Shown: in pieces, positions 1-43,850 of the stretch
Layout: the number at the start of each line of letters is the position of its first letter
Numbering within the stretch: the first letter of the stretch is position 1
Virus record (IMG/VR): IMGVR_UViG_3300012940_000024
Location: 19,838 to 83,837 of that record
Length of the DNA: 64,000 bases
Direction: 5' to 3' (one strand)
From: a virus
Lineage: Duplodnaviria > Caudoviricetes
Program-made: the position numbers and the translations under genes
The notes under the pieces: model-generated
What the model saw: the letters and a program-made list of their open reading frames with translations, nothing else
What the model was told of the DNA's origin: nothing
Database searches by the model: none

Positions 1-3000
1 ACCTTCATAGACATTCAAAGGATTGATTGTAGGATTTAACTCTTGTATATGAGTTGATGTTGTATCGAATTTAATAGCAATAGATGAAAAAGTTTCTCCA
101 CTTTTTACTGTGTAATTTCTTGTTAATTCAGTAGGTTCTTCCACTCTAGGTACATAAATTTGTTGACCACCATAAATGTTATATTCTTCAATCATTGGAT
201 TCAAAGCTAATAAAGTGGCAGATGTTGTATTAAATTTAATAGCAATTGATGATAACGTTTCACCTTCAATTACTGTATATACATCTGTATTTTCCGGCTG
301 TGGTACTTGATAAATAAAATTATGTGTTACTACTGATGATTCGAGTGTTCCATCACTAGCCTTCAATCTTAAATACACCATTGTATTAATTGTGTTAAAA
401 TCTAAAGAATCTAATCGAACTGTTGCCAAACTACCGGAATTTACAAATTCTGATTCTTTTTGCTCTACAAAACCTGAGAAGTTAGAAGATAAGCTTGCTT
501 CAACAATTAATTTGACGGTACTTGAATCAGGATCATATACTTTTGCAGAAATTAATAAATCATTGGCATATGTTCCTAAAGTTGGAGTGATTTCATCAGG
601 TTCATAAGGTGCTTGTGCTTCAATAGTTGGTACATAAATTTGTTGACCGACATATAGATTTTCGGCTTCAACAAATGGATTTAAAGATAATAAATTTAAT
701 GAGGTTGTACCAAACCTATATGCAATATCTCCTAATGTATCTCCGGCTACAATCGTATAAATAGATGTATTTGGAGGTTGTGGATATTGATATACAAAAC
801 TAACATTTACAGGTGACGAAACTAAAGATCCATCACTGGCTGTTACTTTCATATAAATGGTAGTTTTTACCGTATTAATATCATGTCCACTTAAAGTAAT
901 ACTTGCTGTTGTTTCATCATCTACCATATCAGACTCTTGAATGATACTATTAGTGAACATAGAAGAAAGGCTTGATTCAACGATTAATTTAACCTTTCTA
1001 GAATCGGGATCACTAACTGTTGCACTTACTTCAAAATTGTTAACAGTTGTTCCCTGTAAAGGAAGAATATTTGTTGGTGCGTTTGGTGGTTTTGGAATAG
1101 GAACATATATTTGTTGTCCTATATAAATGTTTGAAGGATCTAATATATCTACATTCAAAGCTTGCAATGCTTCAATAGTCATTTTTCTATCATAAGCAAT
1201 TTTCCCAAATGTATCTCCACTTTGAACAATATAAATGACTGTATTTTCCGGCTGTGGATCAACGACACTTGTAATATTGATTGTTACTGTTGCAATTTCT
1301 GAATCATCTTCACCATCATTCGCTTTATATTTAAATGTATCTGTACCATAATAGTTTGGGTTAGGAATATAAACGAATGATCCATCTTCATTAAGTGTTA
1401 ATGTTCCATGCTGAGTAGTTTCCACTAAAATAGCTGTTAATGGAGAATTTTCAATATCAGTGTCATTTTTTAATACACCATTTGCAGAATCAACATTCAA
1501 CGTTGTATCTTCATTTGTTGTATAGGTGTCATTTGAAGAAAACGGTGCATCATTTACACTGTTGATAGTAATAGTTACGGTTGCTACATTTGAATCTAAA
1601 TAGCCATCACTAATTTTATATGTGAATGAATCTTCTCCAAAATAGTTTTCTGTTGGTGTATAGGTAAATGTACCATCACTATTGAATAAAAGTTCTCCAT
1701 GTTGAGTAGTAGTTAATAATATAGCTGTCAATTCTGTACTATCTACATCATAATCATTCTTGATAACACCATTCGTTTCATCTGTAGTTAATACAGTATC
1801 TTCATTTATAATATAGATATTATCTACTGCAACAGGGGGATCGTTGATTGGATTAACAGTGATAGTAACTGTGCCAATATTAGAATCTAATCTGCCATCA
1901 TTTACTTTATAGGTAAAAGTATCAACACCAAAAAAATCATGATCTGGTGTATAAGTAAATGATCCATCTTCATTTAAAGTTAGTTCTCCATTTGCAGGGT
2001 TTGTTACAACGATTGCTGTTAAATCTTCACTGTCAACATCATGGTCATTTGCTATTAATCCGGTTATTACATCAATGGTTAAAGTATTATCTTCATCCAC
2101 GCTATATTCATCATCTTCTACAAAAGGAGGGGAGTAATAATGATAATACTGATAAGGTAATCCAGTTGGTGACATAACAATTCTGCCACTTAAATATTCT
2201 TGATTATAAAAATTCAATGTTACATCTAAAATATTAGTAGGGTTATAAATGTTACCCATTAAATCTGTTCGATCAATGTCCGAAAAAACAGATATAAATT
2301 TCTGCCATGCTTTAGCAAAATACCATAATGTAGCATTATTAAATAAATTCCATGATAAGTAATATTGATTTGCTCCATCTTGGGCAGTACCAATTTTTAC
2401 AATATGATCATAAATTAGTCCTTCATAACCTTCTTCAATGTTGTTATCTTCAATTCTTTGTTTAACATTGTTATGAGCAAAGGCTAAGAAACTCATTATG
2501 CTTGTTACAAGATCTGTATATCGTGTTTGACTGTCATGTTCGCTATATTCTAATAAAGCATAGGCTACGAGATATAATGTTTGTAAATTGATTTTATCAA
2601 TTTGAGGTTTCCAAATATCTTCTTCACGATCATATGTTAATGTATGAGGAAGAACATAGAATTTTTGTCCGGAATAATCCGCATGGATTTTATTTGTTTC
2701 AAGAAAATTCGCAAACATACCACAATCATCAATATAATCTGTATTTTGAGTTGTTTTATATAACAGCAAATAATTTATGATTGCTCTTGAAACAGATTCA
2801 ATACTTATTTCATCAGATACTTTACCTGTTAATTGATCGATAGATGTAAATATTCCACCTTGCGGAACAGAGATAAATCCCATTGTTTCAGTATAATAAA
2901 TATCCGTTGGATCTTTCACTATCGCTTTGCTGTTTTGATAAAAATCGGAAAACTCTTCACTTTCCATTTTGAAGCCTTGCATAAAATAAGAAAAATCTTC

Positions 3001-6000
3001 CAAATAATCCGCACCGTTAATTGTAGCTTTTTCAATGGTTAAATTATTTTCTCCAATTGGTTTTAAATGTGTAACCATTTCTTCAATATTTGATGTTTTA
3101 GAAAGACTTTTTAAATATTTACCATATTTAATTTTTAATCCTTTATTTACATCATCAATCATAGGATTTTCAAAATCGACAATTCGATTCACTGTATCCC
3201 ATTTTAATATAGCGTTAAAAGATGTTGCTACTTGAATTATAAAATCTAAAACAGTCATGTTAGATACATCAAATATCCTTCTTTCTTTGTTCCAATAGAA
3301 ATCAGGATTTTTAATGTTTGCTCCAATTCGCCAATTCAATTGTCCATCTAAAGCAAAAAGTAATGCACTATGAGCCGACCAAATTTCTTCTCTATAATTG
3401 GATATTAATTTATCTTTTAATTCATAGGCCAATGACCATGCATGTATATATTTGGAATTATTTTCACCATAATTGGATATTTCATTAATTATGAAATATT
3501 CTGTTTTATCTCTATATACAAGCTTAATCAAAAATCTTTCTTTGATCATTTTGAAATGATCATTTTCCACTAATTCATTTCTTGTCGATTCTATTTCAAA
3601 AGGAATAGAAAATGTTAATTCATTAAGATCAGCGTATCTTTCAGTGAATGTTACATTATAAGCTTCACTTAAATGTGCAATTACTTGTTTGTTTGGCTTG
3701 CATAAATAAATTTTAGGTTTTGATACAGGCATATTTTTGTCAACTTTGCCTAAAGTTGTTGATAATGGTTCAAGAATTTTAGCATAGACAGTTACACGAT
3801 AACTTTCTGAAAATCCACTACGATCCCCTTGATAATCAAATGCTTCAACTTGAAATGTATGTGTTACATTTGATTCTAGATGATCAATCATATATTTATT
3901 TTCGGTTATATTTGATGCAATTAACCAGCCATCTTTATAGACATTGTAATGACTGTGACCGTACTTTTTCTCATGTTCCCAATTTAATTCAATTCCTCCT
4001 GTTCCTAGTTCTTTATGATAAGTAATTTTTGGAACATTCGGAAAATCAAAAACAGGAGTTGAGAATATTGAATCACTAATTTGAGAAGTGAATCCTTTAT
4101 TTGAAATTGCTTGTATTTTAAAATCATACATTACATCATTTAATAATCCGGCTACCATCAATTCATTTTGAGGATGATTGACTACCGCATATATTTCACC
4201 ATCAAGATATATGTTATAAGATTCAACAAAAGATTCTTCATTCAGTTGCCATGTTAATAAAACTTCACGATCATATGGAACAGCACTTAAACCAGTCGGA
4301 ACGCTTGGAATATCAATTCTTTGAGTAATCGTTCCACTAGTGACTGAATCATTTTCATTATCATATGTGATAATTTCTAGTGTATAATCATAATTTGGTT
4401 TTGCTTCAACATATTTAATAGTATTTTCTGTTACATCACTTGACGTTAATATAATCTTTCCGTTTAAATAAACTTCAAAATGTGAGAAATTTGGACTTTC
4501 TTCTAATTGCCATCTAAATAAAATTGTTTTATGATCTAAAATTTCAGCCTGTAAGTCTGTAGCTTTATTAGGATAATCAGTTATAGGAGTAACAGAAATT
4601 GTTGCTGAATCCGGTGAAACTAATCCTTGTGTTGAAACAGCTTTAATATGGAAATCATATGTCACACCATTTTCTAATCCACTTACGAGATAAGAATTTT
4701 GTTCTGATTCTAATACAGCTACTAAATGATCTCCTTGATATAACAAGAAATTATCAATTTCAACAGGTGGTTCGAGTTCAACTTCTTTTTCAACAAATAC
4801 TTCACCTATTGGAATTGGTTGTGTTGCTACAATATATGGTACAGATACCTCATATTCAATTTCTTCCTCAACGATTCTTTCTACGGTAATGGTTTCATAA
4901 GTAGTTAATGGTTGAGCAAAAATTCCTTCATTCTCGGGAAAAGCAGGATCTAAAGTTAAACCATAATCTTCTGTATTTACTGCAATTCCATGTACTACAC
5001 CACTACCTGTAGCAATCGCTAACTTTCTTCTTCTTACATCTTCAATATAAGTGGGATTTGAAGCATTTGCTCTACGATTAGCAATTGCTACCATTTTTTG
5101 AGTTTCAATTATACCATGAGGTAAGGATGTATCAATGGTAGTAAAATCATTAAAAATTAATGCTTTAGTAGAAGAAGAGATTGACCAGTTTTGAATAGCA
5201 ATATCGAAACATAATGCAAACGCTCTACGAGTAGTTAAGCCGAAAGTATTAAAGTGAACTTTTGCTTGATTAAAGAAGGTTTCTGCATGTTGCACTTGTA
5301 CAGCAATACACTCCGGAGTTACACCTAGATTACGAAAATATGTTCTGTATGGTTCAACAATATTTTTTCCTCCCGAAGTAGAAATGCTTGCACCCCAACT
5401 TACTTGCTGTGATCTAGTCATGTTATAAACAACATTTTTCAACGTATTGTAATAAGAAGGATTGGCATTATAATTAAAAGCATTTTTGACTACATTAGGA
5501 TAATTATCAAACATGGCTCTTAATACAGGTTGCAAAGTACCGGATTTAAAGTTATATTGAAGTGCCCCAAAACTCATACCAGCCTGATCTGAATTTCCTG
5601 CTGTTGCTCCATATGCATCAGGATAACCAGCAGATGTTTCAAATAGTCCAGTTAAAGCCAAGCATTTTGCTTTCAATTCCTCATACGTAGTAATTTGAGG
5701 TGTAACTAGTGTAGTTGTGGGCACTTGCTTTGTTTCTTGAATGACTTTTTGTACTTTTCTAGTTCTTGTTTCTGTTCTAAATTCAATGGTTGTTGGCACT
5801 ACAGGTTGAGTAGGGTTTCTTACGATTAACTTTGATCCAATGATTAAATTGTCAGGATCTACATCAGGATTAAACGCTTGCAATTCATAACTAGGCATAT
5901 TGTATAATTCTTCAATATAGGCAAAGGTATCATGTTGTTGAACAATATGATATTTTGTTCCTTGTGGTAAATCGACAAATAAATATAAAATTTCACCAGC

Positions 6001-41316: not shown

Positions 41317-41628
41317 TCATCTTAATTGAAGGAAGGTAATAACATCTTGAATTTTTAAATCATCAACAAACATTTTTGCATTAACCAAATAAATCCATTT
41401 TAATTTCTTAATATGAGTAATATTAAATTCATAACAGATTTTCGTTTCAATAGCCTTTCTTATTTTAAGATTCATTCTTTTTTTAACTTTAGATGGAGTT
41501 TTCTCTAAATTTTCTCCATAAAAATCTTTTGTTAATCTAAATGCATTAATTTCAATAATTTTTAATAATTCATTTATATCTTTTTGTGACAATCTATTTT
41601 CTCTAGAATTTTCTAATAAATGAGTCAT
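41317..41628 (-). CDS. Hypothetical protein, weak ORF6C-like C-terminus
   Basis: RBS present. The domain call is a weak recollection only. Confidence 0.5.
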   Translation of the reverse strand: MTHLLENSRENRLSQKDINELLKIIEINAFRLTKDFYGENLEKTPSKVKKRMNLKIRKAIETKICYEFNITHIKKLKWIYLVNAKMFVDDLKIQDVITFLQLR

Positions 41629-42225: not shown

Positions 42226-42350
42226 AACAAGATGTGTGAACTGCCTATACGGTAACACAATGTATAGGATTAACCCTTAGGTGAGAGTTTAAAATCAAAT
42301 TTAACCTCACCAGTCGGACATAGTAAGCTTGCCCGCCTATCATTAAAAAT
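42226..42350 (-). ncRNA. Candidate tracrRNA
   Basis: Between effector stop and leader. Stems GGTGAG/CTCACC and CCTATAC/GTATAGG, then anti-repeat TTCACACATCT (42230-42240) complementary to repeat AGATGTGTGGA with one G:U. Confidence 0.65.
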
Positions 42351-42355
42351 ATAGT

Positions 42356-43850
42356 TTATTTTGATGTTATGGTATCATCCGTTTCTTTTATAAATTTTTC
42401 ATTTAGATCAGATTCTTCAATTGGTTTAGCGTTTGCAATATTTTGACTGGCATTATAATCTGCGTTTGCTTCAAAACCACATTTTTTACATTTAAATAAT
42501 TCCTGTCTTACACGTTGACCTTCTTCTAAATTTCCGCATTGGCTACAGGTTTGAGAAGTGTAGCTAGGATCAACAAAATAAACTTTAATTCCTTTTTTAT
42601 GTGCTTTATAAACAATCATAATTTGAATTTGATAATATGACCATAAATCATTAAAGTTTTTTCTTTTCTTTTTTTTGTGATTAAATGATAATTTTTCTAA
42701 ATGTATACTTTCAGCATTATGTTTTACTGCAAAATCAACTATTTTTTTACTTATAATATGACTATGATTTTTGCGAAAGTTTTTTTCTTTTTTTTTCAAT
42801 TTTTCTAATGATTTCATTTTTCGTTGGTATCCTTTTCCAGATCTATTACTATCAGAATCAATTTGAAGTCTCCTTCGCTGTGTTTGAATGGCAGTCCAAA
42901 CTTTTAAACCCTTCTCTTTATAACTTATTTTTTCTTTTATATTTGGTTTATCATTTAATGATACATAAGCAGAAATTTCTATTCCTAGATCTACACCAAC
43001 AATTCTATTTGGAATTGATTTTTTTTCTTTTACGGGAATGTCTAAAGCCAAATTTAAAATTAATTTTTTACCAACACTAATACTACTATCACATAATTTA
43101 TATTCTTTATTGATAACTTTATCTAATAATGATATTAATTCATTTTTTTTTTGCTTTTTGTTTACTTCCTTTTTTTAAAATAATTTTAAATAATACCCCT
43201 TTGCCCCATTCGCTATTTGCCCATTTATTTCTAATATTAAGAAAATAATCATCTCCTTCCTTATAAATAACCATTGAACGATTTCTAATCATTAAATTAT
43301 CAGTTTTTTTATATATTTGTATGGTTCGTTCTCCTTTTAATATCTCATCAATGTTATTTTCAAAATCTGCTTTTACTTTACTTATAATACGATTTACAGT
43401 ATCATAATGCAGTTTAAATTTTTTATGTATTAGATTATCTATTAATGTATCTTCATTTAAAATGATAGCTTTTTGATAAATTTTTTCAGCCTGATTATTA
43501 AATTGTTTTTCTAATTCAGTAAGTTTATCTTTAGCATTATTTAGTTCAATTTGTGCTTTTTGAACTCTTTTAAGTGCTTTTTCTTTATCCTTTGCTTTAT
43601 TAGCTTTTTCTTTTACATTAATTAAATTATTTAATTTTTTTTCAATTTTTTCATTTTGTTCTTCAATTTTTTCATTATATATTTCATTAATTTGTTTAAA
43701 TTCTTGTGTGGCAACATGTTTGAAATAATAATGATTAAGTGTAAAATTCAATGCTAGAAATTGCTTATGTAATTCCTCACGCATAAAAATATTAATTTCA
43801 TCTTTGTTTTCAGAAACAATTTTAATTTCAAACTTTCTTGTTAGTTTCAT
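42356..43850 (-). CDS. cas12f: Cas12f-like (type V-F/V-U3, TnpB-derived) RuvC effector, 497 aa if one A is removed from the A10 run at 43143-43152
   Basis: Track ORFs 43140-43850 and 42356-43051 join as AKKNELISLLDKVINKEYKLCDSSISVGKKLILNLALDIP. RuvC I VGVDLG, RuvC II IHLEKLS, Zn finger CSQC/CKKC, RuvC III NADYNASQNI. Adjacent to the CRISPR array. Resembles CnCas12f1 as recalled. Confidence 0.8.

Follow-up and report, generated by a model that had tools for sequence, protein, structure and literature searches.

Does the gap between a Cas12f1 effector gene and a CRISPR array on a piece of viral DNA hold the tracrRNA that connects the two? The question is posed by a 64-kb stretch (hereafter, the window) that forms part of an 83.8-kb IMG/VR virus record. 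Within it, cas12f1, a candidate tracrRNA and a CRISPR array all lie on the minus strand, in the order gene, tracrRNA, array, with 293 nt between cas12f1 and the first repeat. A first-pass annotation of this gap had proposed a tracrRNA with two stems and an 11-nt anti-repeat. The homologous scaffold, three stems that covary, a tail complementary to the repeat of its own locus, and the gene order together make it very probable that positions 42339-42227 (minus strand) encode the tracrRNA of a type V-F1 CRISPR-Cas12f1 locus belonging to the CnCas12f1/RhCas12f clade.

The neighboring genes encode a partition protein, an integrase, a repressor, an exonuclease V-like helicase and a LysM/CAP protein, a content that fits a temperate phage or phage-plasmid as the host element. 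No Cas1 (PF01867) was detected in the 83.8-kb record, which is about 52% complete by the CheckV estimate, and no type I-C cas genes occur nearby, the adjoining ORFs being phage or plasmid genes.

The effector gene (42356-43850, minus strand) comprises about 497 codons in two frames and was recognized by its match to PDB entry 8hr5_A, its Pfam domains and its RuvC columns. The C-terminal half of the protein matches 8hr5_A (CnCas12f1) with an E-value of 2.7e-68, making CnCas12f1 the closest solved effector, and 9nzp_A (RhCas12f) more weakly, with an E-value of 7e-57; 8HR5 is the CnCas12f1-gRNA-DNA complex and 9NZP the RhCas12f complex (PMC13186708). AsCas12f1, Un1Cas12f1 and SpCas12f1 are more distant from the window effector (E-values of about 1e-43 or weaker). 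The same C-terminal half is approximately 51% identical to CnCas12f1 and approximately 60% identical to its nearest metagenomic relatives, and the closest protein homologs (P0001-P0031) include proteins from Bacillus and Priestia genomes; P0014, P0016, P0018 and P0027 come from genomes of Bacillus, Ectobacillus and Priestia. A Cas12f1-like_TNB domain, a zinc finger, is present according to Pfam, and the window effector carries all three residues of the RuvC D/E/D columns, which are invariant in an alignment with 27 homologs.

Read on the minus strand, the core of the tracrRNA (42339-42227), as matched by two covariance models termed R1 and R2, consists of stem 1, stem 2, a junction, stem 3 and an anti-repeat tail. 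Both stems named in the first-pass annotation are present where it had placed them, and they correspond to stems 2 and 3; the third hairpin, stem 1, had been overlooked. In stem 1 (42335-42315), CGGGC (42335-42331) pairs with GTCCG (42319-42315), as seen in the centroid fold and in the R2 alignment, and the stem extends to about eight pairs beneath a loop longer than in relatives. Stem 2 (42311-42280) is formed by GGTGAGG and TCTCACC and closes an AU-rich distal hairpin, both in the folds and in R2; here GGTGAG (42311-42306) pairs with CTCACC (42285-42280), and a G:U pair brings the total to seven. The junction AAGGGUUAA (42278-42270) is invariant across alignments A2 and A3 and also present in the RhCas12f guide RNA. 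Stem 3 (42268-42244), supported by covariation, joins CCTATAC (42268-42262) to GTATAGG (42250-42244) around the conserved 11-nt loop AUUGUGUUACC. Folded as a single sequence, the region has an unexceptional energy (z = -0.74), so support for the element comes from comparison with other loci rather than from thermodynamics. No Rfam family matches the region.

Viral and metagenome contigs were scanned with profiles, 401 clostridial genomes were searched, and plasmids were searched as well; approximately 190 related loci were gathered in this way. Locus scans with a single protein reached only distant relatives, and it was the profile-based scans and the genome search that yielded useful loci. 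The covariance model R1, trained on 11 sequences, scored the window tracrRNA at 75 bits. In many loci outside its training set it located the element next to the effector, with E-values from 1e-12 to 1e-5. R1 misaligned stems 1 and 2 of the window, both of which were aligned correctly by R2, a model built from ten sister-clade sequences with the window and its relatives L096/L097 and L098 left out. With R2, positions 42339-42227 were the sole match in the 64-kb window (55.4 bits, E = 2.9e-11), and the resulting alignment comprises the three stems with all 20 scaffold pairs canonical.

Covariation across homologous loci had been named as a check in the first-pass annotation. Among the 27 best matches, in an alignment fitted to R1 and hence favoring the structure, standard pairs occupy 93.9% of cells compared with 66.8% in shuffles, and changes on both sides are seen in 18 of the 20 stem pairs. 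The covariation score for these 27 loci is 0.687, against at most 0.10 when the 3' partners are slid by one to three columns. All seven pairs of stem 3 have changed on both sides, with 98.8% of cells paired in the same set. The base of stem 2 covaries as well, reading GGT:ACC in the window, GGG:CCC in L096, GCU:GGC in L176, and UCU:GGA in both the RhCas12f guide RNA and L181. Stem 1 has its counterparts in GGGCG..CGTCC of the Cn-type loci and ACGGCUG..CAGCCG of the RhCas12f guide RNA.

By the sequence of its parts, the window element is a member of the characterized CnCas12f1/RhCas12f guide-RNA family. The 160-nt guide RNA of the RhCas12f cryo-EM structure (Ruminiclostridium herbifermentans, PDB 9NZP; sequence in supplementary file 3 of PMC13186708) runs from stem 1 through AAG, stem 2 (UCUGAGGG...CCACUCGGA), AAGGGUUAA and stem 3 with loop AUUGUGUUACC to a C followed by the anti-repeat, a GAAA tetraloop, the 3' part of the repeat and the spacer (PMC13186708). 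The window matches this RNA in the order of its elements and in its invariant motifs; the two also share a GAG/CUC core in stem 2 and a repeat:anti-repeat duplex that ends 4-5 nt before the spacer. They differ in the loop of stem 1, which measures 11 nt in the window and 6 nt in RhCas12f, and in the distal part of stem 2, which is short and AU-rich in the window, whereas in RhCas12f it mimics the PAM. With 14 pairs in the window, the anti-repeat is longer than in the engineered RhCas12f guide RNA, where it has 7, and its partner in the window is a type I-C-like repeat, while the RhCas12f repeat ends in UGGAAUGUAAAU. In total, the RhCas12f guide RNA has four stems and that of AsCas12f five (PMC13186708).

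The anti-repeat had been described in the first-pass annotation as 11 nt long, with ten Watson-Crick pairs and one G:U. The sequence in question, TTCACACATCT, does lie at 42240-42230 and does complement the repeat, but the pairing is longer: CAGUUCACACAUCU (42243-42230, minus strand), which includes the invariant C, pairs with AGAUGUGUGGAUUG, i.e., repeat nt 15-28, through 14 pairs, 12 of them Watson-Crick and 2 G:U. The assignment is based on the co-fold and on a cross-locus matrix. Including a bulged three-pair extension, the duplex between tail and repeat has an energy of -21.3 to -21.5 kcal/mol. Co-folding of the region with the repeat, also proposed at first pass, gave stems 2 and 3 together with the repeat:anti-repeat duplex. 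When the 17-nt tail was considered at its fixed position after stem 3, none of 5000 shuffles paired as well.

Sixteen tails were then scored against sixteen repeats. Duplexes within the same locus averaged -11.7 kcal/mol and those across loci -6.5 kcal/mol, a result reached in 0 of 20,000 permutations, and the window's own duplex (-21.3 kcal/mol) was the best in both its row and its column. Anti-repeat and repeat change together across loci, which supports the earlier proposal that the tracrRNA ties the effector to its own repeat. The register is kept as well: the partner of the invariant C that follows stem 3 is a G situated 4-5 nt from the repeat's 3' end. In L189 (element at L189:1-90, array from 250) U replaces this C and A replaces its partner G, so that the repeat reads GAATATGAAT in place of GAATGTGAAT, one clean compensatory change between two separate genes.

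These data bear on one alternative, namely that the hairpins arose by chance or belong to a plain 3' UTR or terminator, and that the 11-nt complementarity is a chance match. In favor of coincidence, the DNA is AT-rich (29.5% G+C) and of low complexity, and the minimum free energy of the region is unremarkable, as given above. Searched as a whole, moreover, the 293-nt intergenic region is equalled in its best duplex by 4 of 1000 dinucleotide shuffles (0.4%) and by 5 of 854 tiles from the rest of the window, figures that on their own are only moderately convincing. Against coincidence stand the match of an independent covariance model (E of about 3e-11), stems that covary, shuffled tails that never pair as well as the real one, and invariant motifs held in common with a guide RNA solved by cryo-EM. 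Guide-RNA motifs, covariation, tail pairing and the R2 match effectively refute the chance reading, whose probability we consider negligible.

The arrangement of the locus was compared with that of known systems. L179, from Clostridium novyi, encodes a protein that matches 8hr5_A with 1079 bits over all 497 residues, and on this sequence match it is the native CnCas12f1 locus. Its gene occupies positions 775-2268, its tracr element 2291-2393, and its array begins at 2600; the element thus starts 23 nt after the stop codon and lies about 200 nt before the array. Gene, tracrRNA and array follow one another on one strand with the same scaffold as in the window, in agreement with the first-pass statement that position and layout are those of Cas12f1 tracrRNAs. 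The tracrRNAs of AsCas12f1, Un1Cas12f1 and SpCas12f1 are RNAs of the same kind and role, likewise situated between effector and array. They use two separate repeat:anti-repeat segments; a second segment of this sort was not found in the window tracrRNA in a non-rigorous look.

A different relationship would hold if the element were the 3' scaffold of a TnpB-type omega-RNA, beside which an unrelated type I-C array happens to lie. The omega-RNAs (reRNAs) of IS200/IS605 elements are likewise scaffolds placed directly 3' of a gene for a RuvC nuclease of the same superfamily, and the window effector matches the TnpB model NF040570 with 177.7 bits. The array repeat is indeed of the type I-C kind, and in two related loci, L098 and L017, the scaffold is followed by a single repeat-like handle with no array. 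We nevertheless regard this explanation as very unlikely. The window tail and the array repeat are each other's best match among those tested, and L096, which is the closest of the array-bearing relatives (60% identity), combines a different I-C-like repeat with a matching change in its tail. The gene order, too, equals that of the validated CnCas12f1 CRISPR locus. As a tracrRNA, the window element would receive its guide by base pairing from a separate five-spacer array, whereas the guide of a TnpB omega-RNA is the DNA flanking the transposon end.

L098 encodes an effector 54% identical to that of the window and the same scaffold (L098:3761-3905). Here a 13-nt loop links the anti-repeat to one I-C-like repeat handle (..UGUGGAUUGAAAU), with scaffold and handle fused in a single hairpin. 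From its sequence, L098 resembles a natural single-guide or omega-RNA-like arrangement and is possibly a TnpB-CRISPR intermediate. In L017 (L017:1948-2140), a viral contig on which no array was detected, a repeat-like piece, CTAAGGTGTGAAT, about 100 nt after the scaffold complements the tail ACATCTTAG.

The array of the window (42062-41763, minus strand) contains five repeats of 32 nt each, separated by spacers of 34, 37, 34 and 35 nt. A fifth spacer of 36 nt (41762-41727) leads to a degenerate terminal repeat (41726-41695), in which about 21 of 32 positions are identical as counted from the sequence. Among the five regular repeats, four have the same sequence and one deviates by a single base. 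The degenerate copy sits at the far end of the array, and the leader was therefore placed on the tracrRNA side, where an AT-rich segment (42172-42063, minus strand) extends from a terminator-like hairpin to the first repeat. The motif TTCGCT at the leader-repeat junction was considered as a type I-C leader signal and rejected; it is absent from the L096 and B. thuringiensis arrays and possibly arose by chance. Directly downstream of the array lies a 103-aa ORF (41317-41628, minus strand) that matched neither Pfam nor PHROG and, among NCBIfam models, gave only a weak match below threshold (E = 0.004).

The repeat starts with GTCACATC, contains AGATGTGTGGA and ends with GGATTGAAGT. It is of the type I-C kind, with a length of 32 nt, a GTC start, an internal 6-bp hairpin and an end reading GTGGATTGAA(G/A)T; the features looked for in such repeats, i.e., 32-33 nt, GTC, a palindromic stem and a GTGGATTGAAAT handle, were all found. 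Position 31 is G in four of the five copies, giving the end GAAGT rather than GAAAT. The same length, GTC start, hairpin and end characterize the type I-C repeats of Bacillus halodurans, B. thuringiensis pBTHD521-5 and Bifidobacterium. Identity amounts to 24-26 of 32 positions for most repeats beside cas3-cas5c-cas8c-cas7c and cas2 on pBTHD521-5 (L193), and to 27 of 32 for a lone repeat on a B. safensis plasmid (L194). Unlike type I-C arrays, which are associated with cas3/cas5c/cas8c/cas7c and cas1/cas2/cas4 genes, the window array is coupled to a Cas12f tracrRNA.

The closest array-bearing relatives, L096 and L097, carry another I-C-like repeat and a correspondingly different tail, while Cn-type loci have a different, non-palindromic repeat of 29-30 nt; that of CnCas12f1 itself is 29 nt long and not palindromic, compared with 32 nt and an internal hairpin in the window. 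Sequence comparison thus indicates that the scaffold is conserved while the tail followed the change of repeat class. The tail of L096, CAAUCCACGC, is complementary to the stretch of I-C repeats that is most conserved, and for the window tail a duplex with authentic I-C repeats of B. thuringiensis is computed at -15.7 to -19.6 kcal/mol. One tentative reading, to which we give about one chance in a few, is that in the subclade of the window, L096/L097 and L098 the Cas12f1-tracrRNA module moved onto type I-C-type repeats and its anti-repeat changed to match, maybe using the I-C machinery of the host. The element has no adaptation genes, so it might, speculatively, rely on type I-C Cas1-Cas2-Cas4 of the host for spacer addition; as a further speculation, the window Cas12f1 might even load crRNAs from the host's own I-C arrays. 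Our literature searches returned no description of V-F1 (V-U3) arrays being linked to repeats of type I.

The main interest of the locus lies in this combination of a type I-C-like repeat with a phage setting. It offers a worked example of an anti-repeat that follows its repeat into another class, with no accompanying shift in the protein-binding scaffold, and a phage-borne I-C-like repeat without an adaptation module raises the question of whether mobile miniature type V systems rely on the type I machinery of their hosts for spacers or crRNAs. Repeat arrays similar to the Cn type were also seen on a C. difficile phage-plasmid (L196) and, as an orphan, on a Listeria innocua plasmid (L195), with no annotated cas genes nearby; CnCas12f1-type repeats presumably resemble clostridial type I-B repeats.

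Whether the system is active is a separate matter from its descent. In the record, the effector frame is broken at an A10 run (43152-43143, minus strand), where one extra A splits the gene into ORFs of 236 aa and 231 aa; with A9, a continuous protein of about 497 aa would be read straight through as ..KQKAKKNELISLL... The frameshift is either a sequencing error or a real mutation, and the system may be off or decaying. The tracrRNA gene could accordingly be real by descent while the locus is inactive, a decaying relic with a frameshifted effector and an RNA without present function. Consistent with decay, homologs have no A-run at the matching position, and no protospacer was found for any spacer: the spacers had no match in INPHARED phages or PLSDB plasmids, S1-S4 gave no exact 22-23-mers in IMG/VR, and the 83.8-kb record contained no self-target. 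In the absence of a protospacer, no PAM was derived. The remainder of the locus, however, is well preserved. The halves of the effector abut on their homologs without loss (residue 233 of the N-terminal half corresponds to residue 221 of P0001, and residue 10 of the C-terminal half to residue 224), the RuvC residues are in place, all 20 scaffold pairs are canonical, and four of five repeats have stayed identical. A single homopolymer indel is moreover a common sequencing error in metagenome assembly, and the frame could be recovered if transcription slips on A9-A10 runs. We thus consider an inactive relic improbable.

Upstream of the tracrRNA, no convincing sigma-70 promoter was found, the sites returned by the scan being no more numerous than expected in AT-rich DNA; promoter and terminator scans as a whole gave nothing informative in the AT-rich DNA of the window. 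The best -10 box by eye is TATATT (42351-42346), accompanied by a poor -35. In two clostridial loci an extended -10 box, TGGTATAAT, overlaps the effector stop codon (L176:3255-3266 in C. sporogenes and L179:2258-2269 in C. novyi), and this position suggests that the tracrRNA has its own promoter there. The CnCas12f1 locus thus has TGGTATAAT over the stop codon, whereas the window has only the TATATT box.

Downstream of the anti-repeat, folding predicts a hairpin whose 12-bp stem closes a 27-nt loop (42223-42173, minus strand), followed by a U-rich tract (42172-42165). The same 12-bp hairpin occurs in L096 (L096:3910-3960) with two compensatory changes. By inference it may be the terminator of the tracrRNA, or possibly a leader element; in the CnCas12f1 locus, by comparison, a canonical terminator directly follows a 9-pair anti-repeat, where the window has this large-loop hairpin. 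The hairpin with its U-rich tract and the upstream signals, including the comparison with the Cn locus, suggest a putative primary transcript of roughly 170-180 nt.

By analogy with solved relatives, we infer that the tracrRNA is transcribed, processed and bound by the effector, and that the complex cleaves DNA. The RNA would be transcribed from just downstream of the effector stop codon or processed out of the effector mRNA. Stems 1-3 would fold around the AAGGGUUAA junction and the AUUGUGUUACC loop into the protein-binding scaffold for a Cas12f dimer; in PMC12255294 and PMC13186708, a Cas12f dimer is described as binding one long guide RNA. In the pre-crRNA, nt 15-28 of every 32-nt repeat would be paired to the 3' tail (C42243-U42230), leaving 4 nt (AAGU) between the repeat:anti-repeat duplex and the spacer, and the trimmed tracrRNA:crRNA pair would guide the nuclease to PAM-flanked DNA. 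With the guide-RNA scaffold now defined for a hitherto uncharacterized Cas12f1 ortholog, a single-guide RNA can be designed directly.

A variation on the gene-tracrRNA-array order was encountered on a B. arachidis plasmid (L177), which carries two tracrRNA copies, at 1143-1243 (minus strand) and 3669-3769 (plus strand), mirrored around one effector. Each copy lies beyond its own short array, so that the order there is gene, array, tracrRNA.
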